From the NCBI GenBank assembly GCA_041667145.1, contig JBAYFP010000001.1, positions 17,958-81,957 on the forward strand: 64,000 nt of DNA. The letters run 5' to 3'. Made by a program: the position numbers and the translations under genes. Under the pieces are notes generated by a model. That model had not been told where the DNA came from. It was given only the letters and a program-made list of their open reading frames with translations, and searched no databases. Shown here piece after piece: positions 5,566 to 19,929 of this stretch (its first letter is position 1; every line of letters starts with the position of its first letter). The DNA comes from Minisyncoccota bacterium. GTDB taxonomy: Bacteria > Patescibacteriota > Minisyncoccia > Phycocordibacterales > UBA9973.

Positions 5566-5973
5566 CTATTTTAAAAGACTTAGAAGAGGTAATAATGTTG
5601 CAGGAGAAATAATAAATATTGTATTTGATACAAACATAAGAATATTAATAAATACTAATAAAATCATAATCCATTTCTCTATTTCTCTTTCTTCATCAAT
5701 TTTAAAGATAGCTATTATTCCAAAAATAGCTGATATAAATATAGGCATTACATAAAAAATATAAAAAGGCACCCAATCTAAAAAATCTGGAACAGATAAA
5801 ATTTGAGATACAGATAAATGTTTATATATAAATTTAGGTACCCATTCATCTGGTATATATATCCCTAATAAATGTGATACAGAATATTCACCAACAAGCA
5901 AATAAAATATTGTAAAAATTACTGCCAGAATTGAAAATTTATTTATCTTTTTAAGCATGTGTTTATAAAACAA
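5566..5973 (-). CDS. hypothetical membrane protein
   Basis: 135 aa, 4 hydrophobic helices. Confidence 0.4.
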   Translation of the reverse strand: MFYKHMLKKINKFSILAVIFTIFYLLVGEYSVSHLLGIYIPDEWVPKFIYKHLSVSQILSVPDFLDWVPFYIFYVMPIFISAIFGIIAIFKIDEEREIEKWIMILLVFINILMFVSNTIFIISPATLLPLLSLLK

Positions 5974-7119
5974 TTACTGCTCATGTATAGCTGAATAATT
6001 AATAATAGAACCTAAGCTCTCTAATTCACCTACAGTTACAGATGTTGGTATACCAAACCAACAACCATTCTTTTTTAAGAAAGCTCCTCCACCAGAATTA
6101 CCATGTTCTATCTTAGCTGATGTCTTAATCATATATCCCTCAAATCCGCTTATAACTCCCTCTGTGGCAGTAATAGTGTCACCTCCTACTCCTGGATAAC
6201 CCAAAATTATGATTTCATCACCTAACTTAATACTACTAGATCGACAAAGGTTATGTGCAACTGTACTAACACTGTCTGGAAGAGTCTGTATTGGTTTAAG
6301 TAAGGCAATATCTAAAGTTGGGACGGTAGAAGCAACACTGGTGTCATACCAACGTACGGGAGATTTCTTTATATCATCTGTAACCCCCACACTGCATAAA
6401 ACTGAGTCTTTTACTACATGTAAGTTAGTTAAAATAAATTTATTTAACCCGAAAATAGTTCCACTCCCTACAACAAAATTTTCAGAAGATCCATCAGAAC
6501 AGATTATCCTAACTATATATTTTGCTAAGTCACTCGCAAGCAGTGAACTGTTTGCCTGAGTAGAAGTGATAATTTTTTGTGGTTTGTTTTTGAGTATTTC
6601 TACTTCTTGTCTTAAATTTTCAACTTCTAGATTTTTTAATTTTTGTGTTTCTTTATCTTTTTTTTCTTTATTAATCTTTTCAATTTCATCTACTAGATTT
6701 ATTTTTTCTTTATTCAATACTTCCTTAAATATTTTTATGTCTTCTTCTGTAAAATTCTTTACTAATTTATTTACTTCATCGTTTTTATCTTCTCTTATAA
6801 GTTTTTGTACCCTCAAAACAACAGGAAACATTCTTTTTTCAGCTTGATAATTTTGATAGTACTTAAAGCCAAAATAACTAGCACCACCAATAACAACCAT
6901 ACTCAAAAATAGTATAGGGATAAACCACTTGTATTTTAAATATTTTATTTTAATCCCTTTTGATTTCAAAAACCTGAATATAAAATACGAAGTCAAAATG
7001 AGAAACAGAAAGACAATAAAATAAATGATCTCATTAGTAGAAATACTACTTTTCTGATGTGTAGTTTCTAAAATCGTAGGTGAAACTTCTTCTTTTGGAA
7101 ATTCATAAGGTATTATCAT
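5974..7119 (-). CDS. membrane-anchored trypsin-like serine peptidase (S1 family) with coiled-coil
   Basis: N-terminal TM, KE-rich coiled coil, C-terminal domain with TNLHVV (His), DIALL (Asp), GNSGG (Ser) motifs. Confidence 0.6.
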   Translation of the reverse strand: MIIPYEFPKEEVSPTILETTHQKSSISTNEIIYFIVFLFLILTSYFIFRFLKSKGIKIKYLKYKWFIPILFLSMVVIGGASYFGFKYYQNYQAEKRMFPVVLRVQKLIREDKNDEVNKLVKNFTEEDIKIFKEVLNKEKINLVDEIEKINKEKKDKETQKLKNLEVENLRQEVEILKNKPQKIITSTQANSSLLASDLAKYIVRIICSDGSSENFVVGSGTIFGLNKFILTNLHVVKDSVLCSVGVTDDIKKSPVRWYDTSVASTVPTLDIALLKPIQTLPDSVSTVAHNLCRSSSIKLGDEIIILGYPGVGGDTITATEGVISGFEGYMIKTSAKIEHGNSGGGAFLKKNGCWFGIPTSVTVGELESLGSIINYSAIHEQ

Positions 7120-8440: not shown

Positions 8441-10111
8441 ATGGATAAAGATTTTTATAAAAACTTAAAAGTAGCAGGTTATTCTAGAAAATCATCTGAA
8501 GCAGAAGATAGACAAGTACTTTCTATAGGCTCACAAAAAGATGAGATAGAGAAAATGAAAGAATTAAATGGAATTACAGACACAATTTATTACGAAGACA
8601 GTAAATCAGCAAAAACTCCAGGAATAAGAGATCATTTTTCAAACATGATACAGGATATAAAAAATGGTAAAAGAAATGCAATTGCATGTTGGAAACCCGA
8701 CAGACTTGCAAGAAATATGGATGAGGGTGGAGAGATTATAGATTTATTACAAAGAGGAATTATCAAATCAATAATTACGCCTAGTAAAACCTATACACCT
8801 TCTGAACCAAGCTGGTCATTACTTCTTGAATTTGGTATGGCTAATCAGTTTAGTCGTGATTTATCTGTAAACGTAAAAAGAGGTCAAAATAAAAAAGCTA
8901 GAATGGGTATTCCACATGGATTAGCAAAAATAGGTTTTTTGAATGACAAAACTGAAGAAAAAGGAAATAGAAAATGGTTGATTGACGAAAAAAGATTTCG
9001 AATAATAAAAGAGGTATTTAAGGTATATCTAACTGGTAATTATTCTGGAGGTCAAATGTATGATCTAGCAATAAGAGCCGGACTTACTACACCAAAACAC
9101 AAACATAGTGGTGGTAATTCAATAACCCATTCTAGAATATATACAATATTAAAAGATACAATATATGCTGGTTTTTTTCATCAAGGAGGAGAAAGATACG
9201 AGTTAGATAAAACCTTACCTAGAATTATTACCGAAGATGAACACGAGAAAGTACTTAGAATGCTTTCTGGTAAAAATATACCAAAAACACAAACTCATCA
9301 ATCGATGTATGGCGGTTTTATAATATCACCTCAAAATAAATCCATAGGTACAGACTGTAAATTTCAAATTATATGTGAGTGTAAATACAAATTTTCTTAT
9401 ATTAATAAAACTCATTGTCCAAAATGTGGAAAAGAAATAATTTTAATAAAAAATCCAAAATATCTTGAGTATGAATATTATTACAATGTTGCCTTGAAAA
9501 AGAAAAAGTGGTCAATTAAAAATATTTCACAAAGTAAAGTTACTGATTTTTTATTAGAATTTGCGGATAAGTTTTCAATGTCCCCCGCTCTTGCAAATTG
9601 GTCCAGACGCCATATCCATGAAATTCATGATTCTGAAGTTGAATCAAAATTAGTGGTTGTAGAAAGTCAAAAGGAAAGGATTGAACAACTAGAAACAAAA
9701 AAGGAAAGATACCGTAATATGTTAGCTGATGAGATGATAGAAAGAGAAGAATACGAACATGACACAAAGAAATTTAGCGCCGAAATAGAAAAAATTAAAC
9801 AAAATTCACAAAACCAAGTAAATTGGCTACAAGAAGCTGAAAAAATAATTGACTTGGGGTTAGAAATGAAAAAAATAATCAAAAATGGAACCACAATGGC
9901 AAAAAGAGAGATACTTTCTAAACTCGGTTCGAACCTAATCTGGGACGAGGAAGAACTCAATATTATCAACAAAAAACCAATCCAAGTGCTGATCGATGGA
10001 CTTCTTTGGGCCAAACAAAAAAATCCTAAGTTCGAACCTAGTTCTATAGTTGATACATCAAGTCAGAATGATGTTTTTGAGGACATTCGTCCTATCTTGC
10101 TCCGGGGGTAG
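8441..10111 (+). CDS. large serine recombinase (resolvase/invertase catalytic domain + recombinase domain + zinc ribbon)
   Basis: N-terminal AGYSRKSSEAEDRQ..SIGSQ catalytic-serine motif, DRLAR, C-terminal CPKCGKE zinc ribbon; 556 aa; 3' end overlaps the tRNA 3' end. Confidence 0.85.
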   Translation: MDKDFYKNLKVAGYSRKSSEAEDRQVLSIGSQKDEIEKMKELNGITDTIYYEDSKSAKTPGIRDHFSNMIQDIKNGKRNAIACWKPDRLARNMDEGGEIIDLLQRGIIKSIITPSKTYTPSEPSWSLLLEFGMANQFSRDLSVNVKRGQNKKARMGIPHGLAKIGFLNDKTEEKGNRKWLIDEKRFRIIKEVFKVYLTGNYSGGQMYDLAIRAGLTTPKHKHSGGNSITHSRIYTILKDTIYAGFFHQGGERYELDKTLPRIITEDEHEKVLRMLSGKNIPKTQTHQSMYGGFIISPQNKSIGTDCKFQIICECKYKFSYINKTHCPKCGKEIILIKNPKYLEYEYYYNVALKKKKWSIKNISQSKVTDFLLEFADKFSMSPALANWSRRHIHEIHDSEVESKLVVVESQKERIEQLETKKERYRNMLADEMIEREEYEHDTKKFSAEIEKIKQNSQNQVNWLQEAEKIIDLGLEMKKIIKNGTTMAKREILSKLGSNLIWDEEELNIINKKPIQVLIDGLLWAKQKNPKFEPSSIVDTSSQNDVFEDIRPILLRG

Positions 10112-12641: not shown

Positions 12642-14402
12642 ATGAAAAGCGAGACGAAGCAATGTCAAAACTGCAAACAAGACTTTACAATAGAACCAGA
12701 AGATTTTAATTTCTATGAGAAAATAAAGGTTCCTCCACCGACTTTTTGCCCACTTTGTAGGGCAGAAAGGCGATTTACTTTTAGGAATGAACGTAAGCTT
12801 TTTAAAGTAAAAGATTTTTATACTGATAAGGATATTTTTTCTTTATATCCAGCACGTGATAGTAAAAAAAATTTTACTCAAGAAGAGTGGTTTAGTGACA
12901 ATTGGGATGCATTAGAATATGGTCGTGATTATGATTTTTCTATACCATTTTTTAAACAATTTTTTGATTTAGAAAAAGTAGTTCCAGTTTGGCCGCTTCG
13001 AGTTGAATACGTCGTAAATAGTCCATATAGTGCTAATGCCTCAGCACTTAAAAATTGTTATTTATGTTTTAATTCAAGTCAATCAAAAGATTGTATGTAT
13101 AATAATGCAATAGACTTCAGTACAGACTGTATTGATAATTCCCATATTTTTCAATCAGAACGATGCTATGAATGTTTTTGGACGGATAATTCCTACCAAT
13201 GTTATTATTCTATAATTTGTAAAGAATCCCATAATCTTTATTTTTGTAAAAATTGTCTCGGATGCTCGGATTGTTTTGGATGTGTAGATTTAAGGAAATC
13301 CTCGTATTGTATTTTTAATAAGCAATATACAAAAGAGGATTATAAAAAGGAGATAGAGAATATGAAATTAAATACCATTTCTGGAGTTTCAAGAGCAAGA
13401 GAGAAGGCTCGAGTTTTTTGGTTGACTATGCCAACAAAATATCATCAAGGTTTAAAAAATTACGATTCGACTGGTTCTTATGTAACGAATTGCAAAAACG
13501 TAAAAGAAAGTTTTCTAATGAGAGAAGGAGAAAATATTAAATATTCTCAATATTTACAAGTTCCGAAAAATAAAGATTGTTATGATGCTACTGCATGGGG
13601 ACAGAATATGGAACTTAATTATGAAACTTGTCTTTGTGGGGAAAATTCTTTTAATATAAAATTTTGTTCAGATTGCTGGCCTAATTTTAAAGATTCTGAA
13701 TATTGTATAAGTATGTTTAGTTGCTCGGATTGTTTTGGATGTGTTGGTTTAAAGAAAAAACAATATTGTATTTTGAATAAACAATATACAAAAGAAGAAT
13801 ATAAAATTTTAGTAGAAAAAATTAAAAAACATATGGATGATATGCCTTTTGTTGACAGTAAAGAAAGGATATATAAATATGGAGAATTTTTTCCTATAGA
13901 ATTTTCTCCATTTGGTTATAACAATACAACAGCAATTCAGTATTTTAAAATGACAAAGGAAGAAGCAGAAAAAAAGGGTTATCCATGGAAAGAAATTGAA
14001 AGGGGTGAATATAATATCACTAAAAAAGTATCAGAACTTTCTGATTCTATTAACGATGTTGATGATTCTATCTTAAAAGAAGTAATAGAATGTGAAAACT
14101 GTAAGAGACCTTATCGTATTTTAAAGAATGAATTTATTTTTTATAAAAAAGAAAATTTACCTCTACCTGATTTGTGTGATGAATGTCGTTTTAGAAGAAG
14201 AATTAATGACAGGCTGGGGATTAAGTTGTATGAAAGGTCCTGTATGTGTAAAAGCGATTCTGATGAAACAGGTGTCTATAAAAATACTGTAGAACATATA
14301 CATGGTAATGAACCTTGTGGTGAAATATTTAAAACTGGATATAGCCCTGATTCTAAAGAGATAGTATACTGTGAGAAATGTTATCAGCAGGAGGTTTATT
14401 AA
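12642..14402 (+). CDS. cysteine-rich protein, paralog 1 (about 60 Cys; N- and C-terminal zinc-ribbon-like CxxC pairs; internal repeats)
   Basis: CQNCKQDF..CPLCR N-terminal ribbon; internal duplicated blocks ..CKNCLGCSDCFGCV.. and ..CSDCFGCVGLKKKQYCILNKQYTKEEY..; C-terminal CENCK..CDECR..CEKCY. Confidence 0.6.
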   Translation: MKSETKQCQNCKQDFTIEPEDFNFYEKIKVPPPTFCPLCRAERRFTFRNERKLFKVKDFYTDKDIFSLYPARDSKKNFTQEEWFSDNWDALEYGRDYDFSIPFFKQFFDLEKVVPVWPLRVEYVVNSPYSANASALKNCYLCFNSSQSKDCMYNNAIDFSTDCIDNSHIFQSERCYECFWTDNSYQCYYSIICKESHNLYFCKNCLGCSDCFGCVDLRKSSYCIFNKQYTKEDYKKEIENMKLNTISGVSRAREKARVFWLTMPTKYHQGLKNYDSTGSYVTNCKNVKESFLMREGENIKYSQYLQVPKNKDCYDATAWGQNMELNYETCLCGENSFNIKFCSDCWPNFKDSEYCISMFSCSDCFGCVGLKKKQYCILNKQYTKEEYKILVEKIKKHMDDMPFVDSKERIYKYGEFFPIEFSPFGYNNTTAIQYFKMTKEEAEKKGYPWKEIERGEYNITKKVSELSDSINDVDDSILKEVIECENCKRPYRILKNEFIFYKKENLPLPDLCDECRFRRRINDRLGIKLYERSCMCKSDSDETGVYKNTVEHIHGNEPCGEIFKTGYSPDSKEIVYCEKCYQQEVY

Positions 14403-14405
14403 ATA

Positions 14406-14460
14406 CCCAGACGTTGGACATCTGGGGATTATCCATAGTTCCAGATGTCCAACATCTGGG
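14406..14460 (+). other. pair of GC-rich hairpins (inverted copies of a 21-nt unit) between the Cys-rich paralogs
   Basis: CCCAGACGTTGGACATCTGGG (14406-14426) and CCAGATGTCCAACATCTGG (14441-14459), each self-complementary. Confidence 0.5.
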
Positions 14461-14471
14461 TGAAGAAAATC

Positions 14472-16238
14472 ATGGAGTATAAAAATGAAAATAAAATATG
14501 TCAAAACTGTAAACAAGATTTTACAATAGAGCCAGAAGATTTCAATTTTTATGAAAAAATAAAGGTACCTTCACCGACGTTTTGTCCACTTTGTAGGGCA
14601 CAGAGAAGATTTGCTTTTAGAAATGAAAAAAAATTTTTTCGTACAAAAAGCGCATTTTCTAATAAGGACATTTTTTCTTTATTACCCAAAGAAAGTCAAA
14701 GAAAAATTGTGACCGAAGAAGAGTGGCATGGAGATACATGGGACGCGATGGAATATGCTAGTGAAATAGATTTTTCAAAACCATTTTTGAAACAAATTTT
14801 AGATTTAGAAAAACTAATACCCATTTATAATCTAAATTGTCAATTTATGGTAAATAGTCAGTATTCAGGGAATGCGACAGCCCTTAGAAATTGTTATCTT
14901 TGTTTTAATTCTAACCATTCTGAAGATTCTATGTATGGGAATGCAATCGATAGCTCAAAGGATTGTGTAGATAATTCACATGTAAACCATTCTGAAAGAT
15001 GTTATGAATGTTTTTGGTTAGAAAATTGTTATCAATGTTATTTTTCGATAATATGTAAAGATTCTTTTAATCTATATTTTTGTAAGAATTGCGTAGGATC
15101 TTCAAATTGTTTTGGGTGTATGAATTTAAGTAAATCATCTTTCTGTATTTTTAATAAACAATATACAAAAGAAGAATATGAAATTGAAATAGAAAAAATG
15201 AAATTGAACACAATTTCAGGAATTTCAAAAGCTAGAGAAAAAGCACGTATATTCTGGTTAACTAAACCAGTAAAAAATCATCAGGGTTTGAAGAATTTGA
15301 ATTCAACAGGTTCTTATGTGACAAATTGTAAAAACGTAAATGATAGTTATTTAATTAGGGAGAGTGAAAATATGCGTTATTGTCAGTATATGCAGGTTTC
15401 AGGTAACAAGGATTGTTATGATACCTCTATTTGGGGAGAACACATGGAGTTGGATTATGAGACTTGTCTTTCTGGTGAAAATTCTTACAATTTAAAATTC
15501 TGCTTAAATTGTTGGCCAGCTTGTCGGAATAATGAATATTGTATTAATCTTTTTAGTACGACGGATTGTTTTGGTTGTGTTGGTTTGAAAAAGAAACAGT
15601 ATTGTATCTTAAATAAACAATATACAAAAGAAGAATACGAAATTTTGGTAGAAAAAATTAAGAACCATATGTATGAAATGCCATATGTTGATTCACAAGG
15701 TCTTGTTTATAAATATGGGGAGTTTTTCCCAATAGAATTTTCAGCATATGGATACAACAATTCGATTGCTTTTCAACATTTCCCGATTACGAAAGATGAG
15801 GCAGAAAAAAGGGGATATTTATGGATTGAAGTTCCTCATGGAGAATATACTATTACGAAAAAAGTTTCGGATCTCCCAGATTCGATTGATGATGTTGATG
15901 ATAATTTTTTAAGGGAAGTTGTAGAATGTGAAAATTGTAAAAATGCTTTTCGTGTCTTAGAGGATGAATTAAATTTTTTACAAAAAGAGAAACTTCCTTT
16001 ACCGACGATGTGTCATGATTGTAGACATAAAAGAAGGATAAGTGATAGATTGGAAATAAAATTATATGAAAGATCTTGTATGTGCAAGGGGGACTTTGAT
16101 GAAACTGGTGTTTATAAAAATACTGTAAAACATATACATAGTGATGAACCTTGCGGTGAAATATTTAAAACTGGATATAATCCTGATTCAAAAGAAATAG
16201 TATATTGTGAAAAATGTTATCAGCAGGAGGTATATTAA
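14472..16238 (+). CDS. cysteine-rich protein, paralog 2 (tandem duplicate of 12642-14402)
   Basis: roughly two-thirds identical to paralog 1 along full length; start moved to the Met aligned with paralog 1 (the ORF-track start 14445 overlaps the hairpin). Confidence 0.6.
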   Translation: MEYKNENKICQNCKQDFTIEPEDFNFYEKIKVPSPTFCPLCRAQRRFAFRNEKKFFRTKSAFSNKDIFSLLPKESQRKIVTEEEWHGDTWDAMEYASEIDFSKPFLKQILDLEKLIPIYNLNCQFMVNSQYSGNATALRNCYLCFNSNHSEDSMYGNAIDSSKDCVDNSHVNHSERCYECFWLENCYQCYFSIICKDSFNLYFCKNCVGSSNCFGCMNLSKSSFCIFNKQYTKEEYEIEIEKMKLNTISGISKAREKARIFWLTKPVKNHQGLKNLNSTGSYVTNCKNVNDSYLIRESENMRYCQYMQVSGNKDCYDTSIWGEHMELDYETCLSGENSYNLKFCLNCWPACRNNEYCINLFSTTDCFGCVGLKKKQYCILNKQYTKEEYEILVEKIKNHMYEMPYVDSQGLVYKYGEFFPIEFSAYGYNNSIAFQHFPITKDEAEKRGYLWIEVPHGEYTITKKVSDLPDSIDDVDDNFLREVVECENCKNAFRVLEDELNFLQKEKLPLPTMCHDCRHKRRISDRLEIKLYERSCMCKGDFDETGVYKNTVKHIHSDEPCGEIFKTGYNPDSKEIVYCEKCYQQEVY

Positions 16239-16275
16239 GAGGAGGCCGGACCTTTTTAGAAGGTCCGGCCTCCTC
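16239..16275 (+). terminator. 16-bp GC-rich perfect hairpin right after the paralog-2 stop
   Basis: GAGGAGGCCGGACCTT / AAGGTCCGGCCTCCTC; no T-run follows. Confidence 0.4.
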
Positions 16276-16290
16276 TAGTTATCCACAATT

Positions 16291-16812
16291 ATGAAAAATG
16301 AAAAAAAAAATCCCAGTACTAGAGCAAAGCTCAGTACAGGACAAGGGAAGATAGTAGTAGTTAGTGGGGGATTTGATCCACTTCATATTGGACATATTCG
16401 CTATATGCAAGAGGCAAAAAAACTGGGCGATAAATTAATTGTCATTTTAAACAATGATAATTGGAAAAGACAAAAAAGAAAGCATGTTTTTATGCCTGAT
16501 CACGAACGCAAAGAAATTATAGAAGCTTTAGCTTGTGTAGACAGGGTAATTATTAGCGGACACTCTAAAAATACAAAAGGTCCTAAAAATATGAGTGTGA
16601 GCAAAGAGTTGCTTAAAATTAAACCGCATATTTTCGCCAATGGTGGAGACAGGAATGAAGAAGATGCCAAAGATCCAAACTCCTCCCAATATTTTGATGT
16701 GGAAATGTGTAAGAAACTTGGTATCCAAATGGTTTTTAACGTAGGTAGAGGCGGAAAAATCAGGAGCTCGTCTGAACTTCTCAAAGAATATTCAAAAAAA
16801 ATAAAGAAATAA
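16291..16812 (+). CDS. cytidylyltransferase-like nucleotidyltransferase (HldE/RfaE domain II / TagD-like)
   Basis: VSGGFDPLHIGHIRYMQEAKKLGD (HxGH motif), ISGHS..; N-terminus includes a palindromic GTACT element. Confidence 0.6.
   Translation: MKNEKKNPSTRAKLSTGQGKIVVVSGGFDPLHIGHIRYMQEAKKLGDKLIVILNNDNWKRQKRKHVFMPDHERKEIIEALACVDRVIISGHSKNTKGPKNMSVSKELLKIKPHIFANGGDRNEEDAKDPNSSQYFDVEMCKKLGIQMVFNVGRGGKIRSSSELLKEYSKKIKK
16312..16340. repeat. GTACT-family palindromic element (short-loop form) inside the CDS N-terminus
   Basis: CCCAGTACTAGAGCAAAGCTCAGTACAGG; compare 44881-44916 and 50562-50594. Confidence 0.55.
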
Positions 16813-16875: not shown

Positions 16876-17991
16876 ATGGTAAAAATACTAAAGAAACAGG
16901 GGAAAATAGTCAAAGTCAAAAAACAAAACAAAAAAACTGTTTCACTTAAAACTCGTAAAAAAGGCAAAAAAATAATTAAAATAGCGAAACTTAAAAGATT
17001 TTCGCATAATCCAATTATTGAGCCTAGCCCATATCCTTGGGAATCCAAAGCTACATTTAATCCAACTGCCTTTTTAGTGGATGGAAAAATTCATCTTATT
17101 TATCGAGCAATCGGTGATGATGATGTATCAGTTTTAGGATATGCTTCTAGTTTAGATGGTTCTAAAATAAAAGAAAGGTTTGCATATTCTATTTATAATA
17201 AATTTGGAAAATTTGTAAAATCTGGAGAGCCTATAAACTATATTTCAGGAGGGGGGTGGAATGGTGGTTGTGAAGATCCACGTGTTACTTTGATAGATAA
17301 TGTAGTTTATATGATTTATACAGCTTTTGATGGTTGGGGATCTTTACGAATGGCTTTAACTTCTATCAAACTAGATGATTTTAAAAAAAAGAAATGGAAC
17401 TGGGAAAAACCAATTTTAATTTCTCCTCCTGGTGAAATTCATAAAAATTGGGTTTTATTTCCAGAAAAAATAAATGGTAAATTTGCGATTTTGCATAGTA
17501 TCTCTCCTAAAGTTTTAATAGATTATGTGAAAAATTTTGATGAATTTGATGGTACTAAATTTATAAAAAGTTATCACAGTAGCACTCCTTCTTGGGGAAA
17601 TTCATGGGATAATATAGTGAGAGGCGTAGGCCCAACGCCAATAAAAATCAAAATAGGTTGGCTTGTTTTATATCATGCCATGGATAGAAACGATCCCAAC
17701 AGATATAAATTGGGGGCTATGATTTTAGACCTCAAGGATCCAACAAAAGTTTTGTATCGTTCTCCTTGTCCAATATTAGAGCCAGATGAAGATTATGAGA
17801 ATGAAGGATTTAAAGCTGGTGTCATATATTCCTGTGGTGCAGTAGTGAAAGACGGACAGCTTTTTGTATACTATGGTGGGGCTGATAGTGTAGTTTGTGT
17901 AGCTTCTATAAAACTATCAGATTTGATAAATAATCTTGTGAAAAATAAAAATATTAAATTAGAAAAAAATAAAAAATTTGAACTTAATTAA
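16876..17991 (+). CDS. glycoside hydrolase family 130 (beta-mannoside phosphorylase-like, DUF377)
   Basis: GCEDPRV, YTAFDG, YYGGAD hallmark motifs. Confidence 0.7.
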   Translation: MVKILKKQGKIVKVKKQNKKTVSLKTRKKGKKIIKIAKLKRFSHNPIIEPSPYPWESKATFNPTAFLVDGKIHLIYRAIGDDDVSVLGYASSLDGSKIKERFAYSIYNKFGKFVKSGEPINYISGGGWNGGCEDPRVTLIDNVVYMIYTAFDGWGSLRMALTSIKLDDFKKKKWNWEKPILISPPGEIHKNWVLFPEKINGKFAILHSISPKVLIDYVKNFDEFDGTKFIKSYHSSTPSWGNSWDNIVRGVGPTPIKIKIGWLVLYHAMDRNDPNRYKLGAMILDLKDPTKVLYRSPCPILEPDEDYENEGFKAGVIYSCGAVVKDGQLFVYYGGADSVVCVASIKLSDLINNLVKNKNIKLEKNKKFELN

Positions 17992-17997
17992 AATTAT

Positions 17998-19929
17998 ATG
18001 TTTGTTGTAAAAAAATCAGAACACAATCCTATACTTGTTCCCAATGAAGATCATTATTGGGAAGAATTTGCGAGTTTTAATCTTTGTCCGGTTAGACATA
18101 ATAAATCGATTTATGGACTTTACAGAGCCATCTCTGCAGTCGATATTTTACAAAATCCTCGTCAAAGATCTATCATAGGGATTACTCAGAGTAAAGATGG
18201 AATACATTTTAAAAATCGTGTGCCGTTTATTGTTCCTAAAGAAGAGTGGGATCAATTTGGTTGTGAAGATCCGCGGGTGACATATTTTGAAGGTGTTTTT
18301 TACACTTTTTATACGGCGCTTTCAGAGTATCCTTTCAACGCAAAAGGAATCAAGGTGGCCGTCGCAATATCTCGAGATTTAAAGAAGATTGACGAAAGAC
18401 ATTTAGTGACACCTTTTAACGCTAAAGCCATGACTCTCTTTCCAGAACGTATAAATGGAAAGATTGTTGTTGTTTTTTCTTACCACACTGATTCTCCTCC
18501 GACAAAAATAGCATTTGCGATGTTGGATAAGATAGAAGATTTGTGGTCGCAAACATTTTGGGAAAAATGGGAAAATAAAGTTGATGATTATACAATTGAT
18601 TTGAAACGTACACAGTATGATCATATCGAAGTCGGAGCTCCACCACTTAAAACAAAATACGGCTGGCTTTTTATTTATTCGCATATTCAAAATTATTTTC
18701 AATCACCTAATAATTTAGACAGAATTTTCGGTATTGAAGCGGTGTTGCTTGATTTAAAAGATCCAAGAAAGATAATTGCTAGAACTTCTGGACCGATGAT
18801 CGTTCCAGAAGAGTCTTATGAACTTTCAGGATATGTTCCAGATATAGTTTTCCCGACTGGCGCACTAATAGAAAAAGATACTCTTACGATATATTATGGT
18901 GCAGCTGATACTACGGTTTGCTCTGCAAAGGTTTGTTTGTCTGATCTTATTTCAAACATGCTTCCTAAGTTTAGAGAGGGCTCTCGTTTCAAGCGTTCTC
19001 TTAAAAATCCTATTATTGTTCCAATAAAAGAAAATAAATGGGAAGAGCAATCTACATTTAATCCCGCGTCAATATTACTTAATGGAAAGATACATATAGT
19101 GTATCGTGCAATGTCGCAGGACAATACATCTACACTTGGATATGCAATGACAAAGAATGGTGTTGATGTGATAGAACGTTTATCTTTACCCATCTATGTT
19201 CCTCGTGAAGATTTTGAAAATAAAAAAGTCAGTAATGGTAATTCTGGTTGTGAAGATCCGAGACTAACAAAGATTGGTAAGAATATTTATTTGTGTTATA
19301 CAGCTTTTGATAGTATTGGCCCTCCTAGGGTAGCTATCTCATCTATTACGGAAAAAGATTTTATTTCTCATAATTGGAGATGGGAAAAACCATTTTTAAT
19401 AACGCCACAAGGAATGGATGACAAAGATGCTTGTCTTTTTCCTAATAAATTTAAATTAGGTTATTTTATTTTGCATCGTTTAGACAATGAAATTTGTGGT
19501 GATTATTTAAACACTTTAGACTTTAAACATGAAGCTGTAAAAAAATGTATAAGAATTATTGGGCCTCGAGTAAACACATGGGACAGTGCTAAAGTAGGTA
19601 TCTCTGCTCCACCGATTAAAACAAAATATGGCTGGCTTTTGCTCTATCATGGAGTATCCAAAAGTCATAGTACTTATCGCATTGGGTGTGTTTTACTTGA
19701 TCTTAAAGATCCTGGCATTGTGCTTGCACGTAGTACTGAACCAATTTTTGAACCTGAAGAACAGTATGAAAAAATTGGTGTAGTTAATAATGTTGTATTT
19801 CCATGTGGAATGATAGTAAAAAATAAATTACTTTATATTTATTATGGAGGAGGAGATCGTGTGGTGGGGGTAGCCACGATGAAGCTTGATGTCATTTTGA
19901 AGGTACTTTTACATGGTACAAAATTATGA
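17998..19929 (+). CDS. tandem double GH130 domain protein
   Basis: two full repeats each with GCEDPR(V/L), YTA(L/F), YYG(A/G)(A/G)D motifs; 643 aa. Confidence 0.7.
   Translation: MFVVKKSEHNPILVPNEDHYWEEFASFNLCPVRHNKSIYGLYRAISAVDILQNPRQRSIIGITQSKDGIHFKNRVPFIVPKEEWDQFGCEDPRVTYFEGVFYTFYTALSEYPFNAKGIKVAVAISRDLKKIDERHLVTPFNAKAMTLFPERINGKIVVVFSYHTDSPPTKIAFAMLDKIEDLWSQTFWEKWENKVDDYTIDLKRTQYDHIEVGAPPLKTKYGWLFIYSHIQNYFQSPNNLDRIFGIEAVLLDLKDPRKIIARTSGPMIVPEESYELSGYVPDIVFPTGALIEKDTLTIYYGAADTTVCSAKVCLSDLISNMLPKFREGSRFKRSLKNPIIVPIKENKWEEQSTFNPASILLNGKIHIVYRAMSQDNTSTLGYAMTKNGVDVIERLSLPIYVPREDFENKKVSNGNSGCEDPRLTKIGKNIYLCYTAFDSIGPPRVAISSITEKDFISHNWRWEKPFLITPQGMDDKDACLFPNKFKLGYFILHRLDNEICGDYLNTLDFKHEAVKKCIRIIGPRVNTWDSAKVGISAPPIKTKYGWLLLYHGVSKSHSTYRIGCVLLDLKDPGIVLARSTEPIFEPEEQYEKIGVVNNVVFPCGMIVKNKLLYIYYGGGDRVVGVATMKLDVILKVLLHGTKL

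Follow-up and report, generated by a model that had tools for sequence, protein, structure and literature searches.

A tandem pair of cysteine-rich proteins with zinc-finger-like ends belongs to an undescribed multigene family of Patescibacteria

The window analysed here, a stretch of 64,000 nucleotides (nt) from a Minisyncoccota bacterium (GenBank assembly GCA_041667145.1, contig JBAYFP010000001.1, positions 17,958 to 81,957), encodes two adjacent cysteine-rich proteins, A and B, whose genes are tandem copies within a multigene family that has not been described before and is confined to Patescibacteria of the Parcubacteria/Paceibacteria type. The family proteins are soluble, about 580 amino acids (aa) long, and are built in a fixed order: a zf_Tbcl finger, a domain d1, two capped repeat blocks, a domain d2, a second zf_Tbcl finger and a zf_Tbcl_2-like finger (Table 1). 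As for function, we tentatively propose a zinc-finger-tethered scaffold or adaptor that acts with VirD4/HerA-like ATPases, possibly as heteromeric sets.

Genes A and B lie on the same strand and their products are 70.3% identical over 585 aa, close to the two-thirds identity given in a preliminary description of this DNA, which had also credited each protein with about 60 cysteines; we count 38 in A and 38 in B. In the record of a Candidatus Paceibacterota metagenome-assembled genome (MAG), one "hypothetical protein" is identical to the product of gene A, and gene B comes next. The preliminary description called the family uncharacterised, a view that a confident match to a characterised family explaining the cysteines would have overturned. 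None was found in Pfam, NCBIfam, PADLOC or PDB: the full proteins gave no significant match by sequence or profile, and no model in these databases covers their full length. We found no description of the family in the literature. Homologues are all named "hypothetical protein" in their sources, except for a few automatic Joint Genome Institute (JGI) labels that include "Fe-S cluster protein YjdI" and "small metal-binding protein".

The family is large. Among 90%-identity clusters, a word-indexed search gave at least 7994 significant matches in at least 8000 candidates, and an exhaustive profile search of 50%-identity clusters gave 4266 matches at E ≤ 1e-3 and 1748 at E ≤ 1e-30, the best 150 of which are mostly full-length (545-612 aa), with some shorter and probably truncated. 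Scanning one genome per GTDB species yielded at least 528 confirmed stretches. By record title, the best 78 loci of that scan are nearly all Patescibacteria MAGs, with Nomurabacteria, Staskawiczbacteria, Giovannonibacteria, Jorgensenbacteria, Liptonbacteria, Sungiibacteria, Paceibacterota and Minisyncoccia among the lineages named; some are automatically named "Saccharibacteria" or plain "bacterium", and one is labelled Gammaproteobacteria. These 78 loci, together with six found by exact-protein look-up and the window itself, make up a context set of 85 loci, in which open reading frames (ORFs) were called, family members identified with hidden Markov models and neighbours clustered. The set holds 223 family ORFs. 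Cysteine makes up 5.9% of the residues in family proteins and 0.78% of those in neighbouring ORFs, and a hydrophobic 19-mer occurs in only one of the 223 ORFs, which bears out the earlier statement that signal peptides and transmembrane (TM) segments are lacking.

We used an AlphaFold2 model of protein A based on a 113-sequence alignment that was gathered via two distant paralogues (31% and 40% identical to A). It reached a predicted local distance difference test score (pLDDT) of 85.1 and a predicted template modelling score of 0.88; 31 close homologues alone gave a pLDDT of 55. The termini had been described as zinc-ribbon-like, and this can now be sharpened to fingers of the zf_Tbcl (PF13451, "probable treble clef domain") and zf_Tbcl_2/CxxC-x17-CxxC types. 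At the N-terminus, the expected CQNC...CPLC pair is present, spaced C8-x2-C11-x24-C36-x2-C39 and not with 19 intervening residues as first stated; this finger is modelled with pLDDT >90 and its cysteines are at least 0.89 conserved. The C-terminal motifs listed earlier (CENC...CDEC, CMC and CEKC) are all found, within C484-x2-C487-x24-C512-x2-C515, C534-x-C536, C559 and C577-x2-C580. Residues 1-52 and 476-528 align to each other with an hhalign probability of 99% (E 4e-18, using sub-alignments), so that the two zf_Tbcl-type fingers are duplicates of one module. Both have the PF13451 layout, a module of some 45 aa with two CxxC pairs separated by about 20-25 residues, and share the motif C-x2-C...F.I...[ED]..FY.K...P.P..C..CR..RR, in which, as in zf_Tbcl, the second of two CxxC knuckles is followed by a basic helix.

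For A and B, the matches to these Pfam families score below threshold. Isolated finger modules align to PF13451 over the full model with E values of 2e-4 to 9e-3; the N-terminal segment of gene A scores 16.4 bits (E 9e-3) and the fingers of other paralogues 18-21 bits, also with full model coverage, relative to a gathering threshold of 24 bits. In a Pfam scan of 65 diverse members, zf_Tbcl is matched by 20 at E ≤ 0.1 (best E 4.9e-6) and zf_Tbcl_2 (PF23477) by 12 (best E 5.5e-6), and no other family recurs. The domain covers fewer than 100 of 586 residues, A and B score about 16 bits and not 24, and zf_Tbcl itself has no characterised function. The last 60 residues match zf_Tbcl_2 with 17.6 bits (E 3e-3), below its 27-bit threshold. 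Here the family sequence ...C..(F/Y).T.Y.P...EIVYCE.CY resembles the ..VPFKP...RPVYCK.C finger of zf_Tbcl_2 and TIGR04272; A and B, which both remain sub-threshold, differ in their first knuckle (C534 ... C559), which is interrupted by 22 inserted residues that include C536, H552 and H554, while the second knuckle, IVYCEKC, is intact. "Putative zinc-ribbon domain" proteins among the viral models of BFVD superpose on the finger over 43-44 columns at 0.7-0.8 Å (Foldseek). Small CxxC-x17-CxxC (TIGR04272) proteins of Methanosarcina mazei bind zinc, as determined by inductively coupled plasma mass spectrometry (PMC12704099). We infer that A and B bind structural zinc at three terminal sites per chain, of Cys4 or Cys/His composition. 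The d1 and d2 domains, both confidently modelled, match no known family; d2 contains the most conserved non-cysteine motif, (E/K)YGEFFP...S.F.YN.T.AQ..FP.TKEEA...G..W.

The middle of the protein is formed by the two repeat blocks. Residues 131-242 align to residues 279-395 with an hhalign probability of 99.9% (E 6e-35), identifying them as duplicates of one block; the duplication reported earlier is thus upheld, with a block size of about 115-140 aa and not about 150 aa. Block 1 follows the coil pattern x-[DN]-C-x2-[CS]-x5-S and ends in the run C202-x2-C205-x2-C208-x2-C211-x2-C214, the cap YCIFNKQYTKEDY and a helix. Both blocks close with a conserved cap, ...DCFGC..L[RK]K..YCI.NKQY[ST]KEEY, and then a helix. 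Autocorrelation over alignment columns 126-226 is strongest at a lag of 12 with a sub-period of 3, and the signal in block 2 is weaker. Comparing the model with PDB folds yields matches to β-solenoids only, with about 80-110 residues aligned, the size of one repeat block; one Foldseek run against PDB gave none. The blocks are predicted to form a narrow solenoid of 12-residue coils, a reading that is moderately supported because they are modelled with a pLDDT of only 62-75 and few DSSP strands.

Narrow β-solenoids available for comparison are the Tenebrio antifreeze protein (TmAFP; 1ezg), the spruce budworm antifreeze protein (1m8n) and curli CsgA (8c50). The regular 12-residue coils of TmAFP also occur in block 1 of the family. 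TmAFP has two cysteines per coil, six residues apart and joined in an intra-coil disulfide, whereas the family ladder has mainly one cysteine per coil, at coil position 3 and sometimes also at 6, 9 or 12. Furthermore, the family lacks the TCT motif and the signal peptide, and the sequence match to TmAFP is not significant (E 8). The interior of a β-solenoid with the TmAFP fold holds only small side chains.

The central C-x2-C ladder had been suggested to be a Zn or Fe-S site. We compared cysteine columns in a 137-row alignment of gene A with 136 full-length representatives (50% identity), and the fingers and the ladder behave differently. Finger cysteines are 0.89-0.99 conserved, except for C487, C512 and C515, which are absent in some subfamilies and are lost together (phi 0.73-0.92). 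An additional d1 site, C-x2-C-x17-C-x2-C at columns 58/61/79/82, is found in about 45% of the family, and its columns 61/79/82 are gained and lost jointly (phi 0.97-1.0); genes A and B carry D, T, T and E at these four columns (window 12813-12887 in gene A) and have therefore lost this zinc site. Ladder cysteines, in contrast, are 0.15-0.75 conserved, give way mostly to Ser, Val, Ile, Leu, Ala or Thr, and co-occur weakly as pairs (phi ≤ 0.42). Such independent replacement and weak co-occurrence argue that they act as small buried core residues and not as ligand sets, and that the ladder is the stacked small-residue core of the solenoid and not a chain of metal sites. The Fe-S ligand sets CxxCxxCxxxC(P) and Cx3Cx2C are likewise without support, as no ferredoxin or radical-SAM model of Pfam or NCBIfam is matched; even the C-x2-C-x2-C-x2-C run at 205-214 has a spacing unlike Fe-S sets, and its members are lost independently. 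The earlier remark that the spacings do not resemble those of ferredoxins, DnaJ or radical-SAM proteins holds, since no such profile was matched. The DnaJ cysteine-rich domain, metallothioneins and ferredoxins are also rich in cysteine and C-x2-C motifs, and DnaJ is often encoded near the family, but no profile match connects them to it and spacing, conservation and predicted fold are all unlike. For annotation, this means that dense C-x2-C ladders should not be called metal sites until substitution and co-loss have been checked.

Relatives of the repeat block are also encoded by phages. Scanning IMG/VR identified six loci with short relatives (tblastn E 1e-5 to 1e-10), among them L086:5920-6423 and 6425-6781, L089:4962-5717, L090:~5914-6270 and L088:~345-740; in L086 the two copies stand in tandem, followed by glycosyltransferases. 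Complete phage relatives, 118-251 aa long, consist of an N-terminal helix (MKTKEEIL.M.K.EL..YKW), a cysteine run and the cap CFGCRN...Y.ICN.Q.TKEEYE.K. They match no Pfam or PDB entry, and no relative of the phage-type protein or of block 2 was found in GenBank phage genomes. The L089 protein belongs with phrog_15341 (E 2e-29), and this family in turn matches block 1, and block 1 only, at residues 138-241 of gene A (E 1.6e-4, 22 bits) and in gene B (E 4.7e-3). By inspection, phrog_15341 shares the cap motif (CFGCRN...Y.ICN.Q.TKEEY) as a stand-alone single repeat block; it differs in its idealised (C-x-x)n run and in lacking the zinc fingers, d1 and d2. The existence of a stand-alone form in phages indicates that the block with its cap is an independent, undescribed module.

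In the bacterial genomes, family genes are arranged in tandem arrays. Two or more copies are present at 59 of the 85 loci, up to ten copies in 17.7 kb, and those at a locus all lie on the same strand; the 98 pairs of adjacent family genes are separated by a median of 12 nt. Identity is 31-45% between paralogues of one array and 65-80% between orthologues in different MAGs, and the arrays are thus old, conserved sets of paralogues. The suggestion that the duplication reflects a heteromer or diversification fits with these multi-paralogue arrays. Several arrays (L004:4511-6166, with 305 aa + 202 aa; L014, L020, L026, L052 and others) contain split or truncated family ORFs, which suggests frameshifts, pseudogenes or assembly errors. 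Some tblastn spans extend over about 2.5 kb for the 586-aa query (L022:8001-10544, L009:2608-5136, L074:365-2940, L066:8001-10530); these are probably adjacent paralogues joined, insertions being the alternative.

The commonest neighbour is a VirD4/TraD/HerA-like P-loop ATPase, found at 32 of the 85 loci and within three genes of the family at 29. All 25 directly adjacent family-ATPase pairs are on the same strand, with a median gap of 42 nt, an arrangement resembling that of an operon. Two forms recur, of about 490 and 700 aa (for example, L006:4166-6247 and 13263-14750, with equivalents in L003, L004, L008, L010, L014, L016, L021 and others), both without TM segments. They score far below the TraD/VirD4 equivalog cut-offs and match phrog_5156 (E 1e-63), and no characterised equivalog. 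In this they differ from type IV coupling systems, as the ATPases beside the family lack the TM anchor and VirB-type genes do not recur among the neighbours. The ~700-aa form carries a zf_Tbcl_2/TIGR04272 finger followed by a long proline-rich tail, and this finger aligns to the C-terminal module of the family with an hhalign probability of 84% (E 7e-6). In many Paceibacteria-type MAGs, the ATPases are located between dnaK and dnaJ, in the recurrent order PaaX_M< DnaK> x> ATPase700> FAM(1-3)> ATPase490> DnaJ> u200> arginase< CysRS<, where FAM denotes family genes; a second recurrent order is GrpE> FAM(n)> PaaX_M< DnaK>. Among the 85 loci, DnaK is a neighbour at 17, DnaJ at 11, CutA1 at six and ArsR-type regulators at five. 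Orthogroup F0, to which genes A and B belong, is in several genomes a single gene between or beside the two ATPases. One family gene is also found inside the purL-X-purQ-purF-purN-purD operon at two loci (L001:4972-10640 and L002:5083-10516); a role in purine biosynthesis was considered, and the purL-X-purQ arrangement is limited to these two.

In the scaffold proposal, which we favour but regard as possible rather than established, a rigid solenoid body would serve as the scaffold, and the zinc fingers and arginine-rich helices at both ends would attach it to a nucleic acid or to another protein. The family protein would act with the adjacent soluble VirD4/TraD/HerA-like ATPases, one of which bears the same type of finger, and the many paralogues per genome would probably be related or heteromeric scaffolds or adaptors for ATPase motors, not enzymes or metal stores. 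Several observations weigh against this proposal. The repeat blocks, which would form the rigid body, are the least confident part of the model. An ATPase is absent within 8 kb at about 60% of loci, and other contexts exist (purL-X-purQ in L001/L002, GH130 genes here), so that the family-ATPase linkage could be lineage synteny; the window itself contains no further family copy, no VirD4/TraD/HerA-like ATPase and no DnaK. The median family pI of about 6.2 fits poorly with a general nucleic-acid binder, and no characterised homologue bearing on function was found. Within the blocks, C205, C208, C211 and C214 (0.80-0.92) and C367 and C376 (0.88-0.96) are exceptions to the poor conservation of the ladder, and some cysteine chemistry, for example a capping site at these residues, may be present. 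In the phage relatives, exactly every third residue of the run is a cysteine, (CSDCFG/CSDCSR)n, for a maximum of 65 cysteines in 251 aa; given this idealised form, it is a possibility that cysteine chemistry mattered in the ancestral block.

These conserved cysteines and the phage run also speak for a metal or Fe-S protein, in which the ladder would hold Zn, Cu or Fe-S centres in a row for metal buffering, storage or electron transfer. The overall cysteine enrichment, the CutA1 and ArsR-type genes in or beside arrays and the few JGI names quoted above point in the same direction. We nevertheless consider this reading unlikely: when ladder cysteines are replaced, it is never preferentially by His or Asp, they are lost singly, several of those in gene A are already gone in gene B, no Fe-S model of any kind is matched, and the only PDB fold matches are solenoids with small-side-chain interiors. 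The solenoid fold could instead point outside the cell, to an exported surface fibre, adhesin or ice-binding-like protein that a VirD4-like ATPase hands over, that DnaK and DnaJ keep unfolded and whose ladder forms disulfides once outside. The best fold matches, curli CsgA and the disulfide-laddered TmAFP with its 12-residue coils, are extracellular, VirD4/TraD-type proteins and chaperones are neighbours, and CPR (candidate phyla radiation) bacteria widely encode the MdbA/VKOR disulfide machinery (PMC6744442). Against this reading, which we rank slightly below the metal one, the family lacks signal peptides and TM segments, the adjacent ATPases lack the TM anchor of true coupling proteins, other components of a type IV secretion system were not seen in the loci, three zinc fingers are typical of intracellular proteins, and orthologues 65-80% identical across genera are unlike surface or effector proteins.

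The placement of arrays within the grpE-dnaK-dnaJ locus in many genomes, in the two gene orders given above, would also suit a role in protein quality control, in which the family proteins would assist DnaK/DnaJ/GrpE as zinc-dependent co-chaperones, holdases or redox sensors in the manner of the DnaJ cysteine-rich domain or Hsp33. However, neither the DnaJ CXXCXGXG domain nor Hsp33 resembled the family in any search, and many arrays lie elsewhere; the locus also contains arginase and CysRS, so that conserved synteny alone may explain the neighbourhood, and this role appears less probable again than export. Least probable of all, and in our view very unlikely, is a selfish, mobile or defence cassette in which family genes and a HerA/VirD4-like ATPase expand in arrays. 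Copies are indeed amplified in tandem, the ATPases are weakly similar to HerA and mad8 defence proteins and strongly to phrog_5156, the repeat block stands alone in phages, and a serine recombinase gene lies 2.5 kb upstream of gene A. However, PADLOC yields no match to the family, and the orthogroups, which are highly conserved, stay in synteny with housekeeping genes in different genera; the context of the window is common to L011 and in part to L009, where the recombinase cluster (c92) does not recur.

What is already known comprises the zinc-finger families of the end domains, which have no characterised function, and the fold class of the repeat blocks; the full architecture, d1, d2, the module of block and cap and the genomic association have not been described before. 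The genomes of Paceibacteria-type CPR bacteria are very small and, to our knowledge, hardly any of the proteins specific to these lineages have been characterised by experiment. In the present case, one unannotated family amounts to thousands of clusters, is kept in 2-10 tandem copies and is placed in the dnaK locus beside unusual soluble ATPases. This investment, together with the 65-80% conservation within orthogroups, argues for a core, lineage-defining function. There is an outside chance, somewhat better than that of any rival weighed above, that the family and the two soluble ATPases of the grpE-dnaK-dnaJ locus constitute a new CPR-specific machine, or that the repeat is a new fold. In such a machine, ring ATPases could assemble, move or remodel zinc-finger-tipped solenoid rods, with a cytoskeletal, nucleoid-organising or DNA/protein-handling role, which, if true, would explain why ten or more copies are kept in genomes of <1 Mb. 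Independently of this, the (C-x-x)n repeat, pure in phages, could represent a new metal-thiolate or cysteine-core fold.

Table 1. Genes, domains and neighbouring features in the window; residue numbers are those of protein A
Feature	Position in window	Strand	Details
Gene A	12642..14402	+	586 aa; orthogroup F0
N-terminal treble-clef zinc finger, zf_Tbcl-like	12642..12797	+	A 1-52; C8, C11, C36, C39; then basic helix CRAERRFTFRNERK
Linker domain d1	12798..13016	+	A 53-125; no known family
Repeat block 1	13017..13427	+	A 126-262; about eight 12-residue coils
Repeat block 2	13428..13847	+	A 263-402; more degenerate duplicate of block 1; ends CSDCFGCVGLKKKQYCILNKQYTKEEY, helix
Domain d2	13848..14075	+	A 403-478; pLDDT 93-98; no known family
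Second zf_Tbcl-type finger	14076..14225	+	A 479-528; C484, C487, C512, C515; basic helix
C-terminal finger	14226..14402	+	A 529-586 and stop; C534, C536, H552, H554, C559, C577, C580
Intercistronic inverted repeat ("double hairpin")	14405..14461	+	21-nt arms, each itself palindromic; -38 kcal/mol, z -8.1
Gene B	14472..16238	+	588 aa; architecture as in gene A; orthogroup F0
Hairpin after gene B	16238..16276	+	perfect 17-18 bp, GC-rich, without U-tract; -36.9 kcal/mol, z -9.2
Cytidylyltransferase-like gene, small	16291-16812		upstream of the GH130 pair
Two adjacent GH130 genes	16876-19929	+	371 aa (one domain) and 643 aa (two domains)
Large serine recombinase	8441-10111	+	Resolvase and Recombinase domains; 556 aa

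Residue numbers in gene B equal those of gene A plus 2. The longest ORF of gene B, 597 aa at 14445-16238, begins at an ATG within the 3′ arm of the intercistronic hairpin. Homologues and the NCBI call (588 aa, P0016) begin at ATG 14472, which is probably the true start.

The double hairpin between the genes and the GC-rich hairpin after gene B, both noted in the preliminary description, are present and fold strongly (Table 1). The intercistronic repeat is probably a terminator, an attenuator or an RNA-stabilising stem-loop, and the hairpin after gene B probably a terminator or an RNA-stabilising stem-loop. No dispersed-repeat copies of either are found elsewhere in the window, and a stem-loop of -20 kcal/mol or stronger lies 3′ of 27 of 177 family genes elsewhere. 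The idea of a special mechanism or a dispersed repeat was dropped: both hairpins are unique in the window, and genes in these genomes are commonly followed by strong stem-loops, which makes these two ordinary terminator-like elements. A stem-loop between paralogues is still slightly unusual, as the typical spacer of a family pair is 12 nt.

The cytidylyltransferase and the three GH130 domains described downstream are present, the latter distributed over two genes. They were rejected as functional partners, as they recur at only one or two other loci; the order of cytidylyltransferase and GH130 after family genes is repeated in L011. Besides the recombinase, a small membrane protein, a SIMPL/DUF541 protein and an EamA-type transporter are encoded upstream of gene A.

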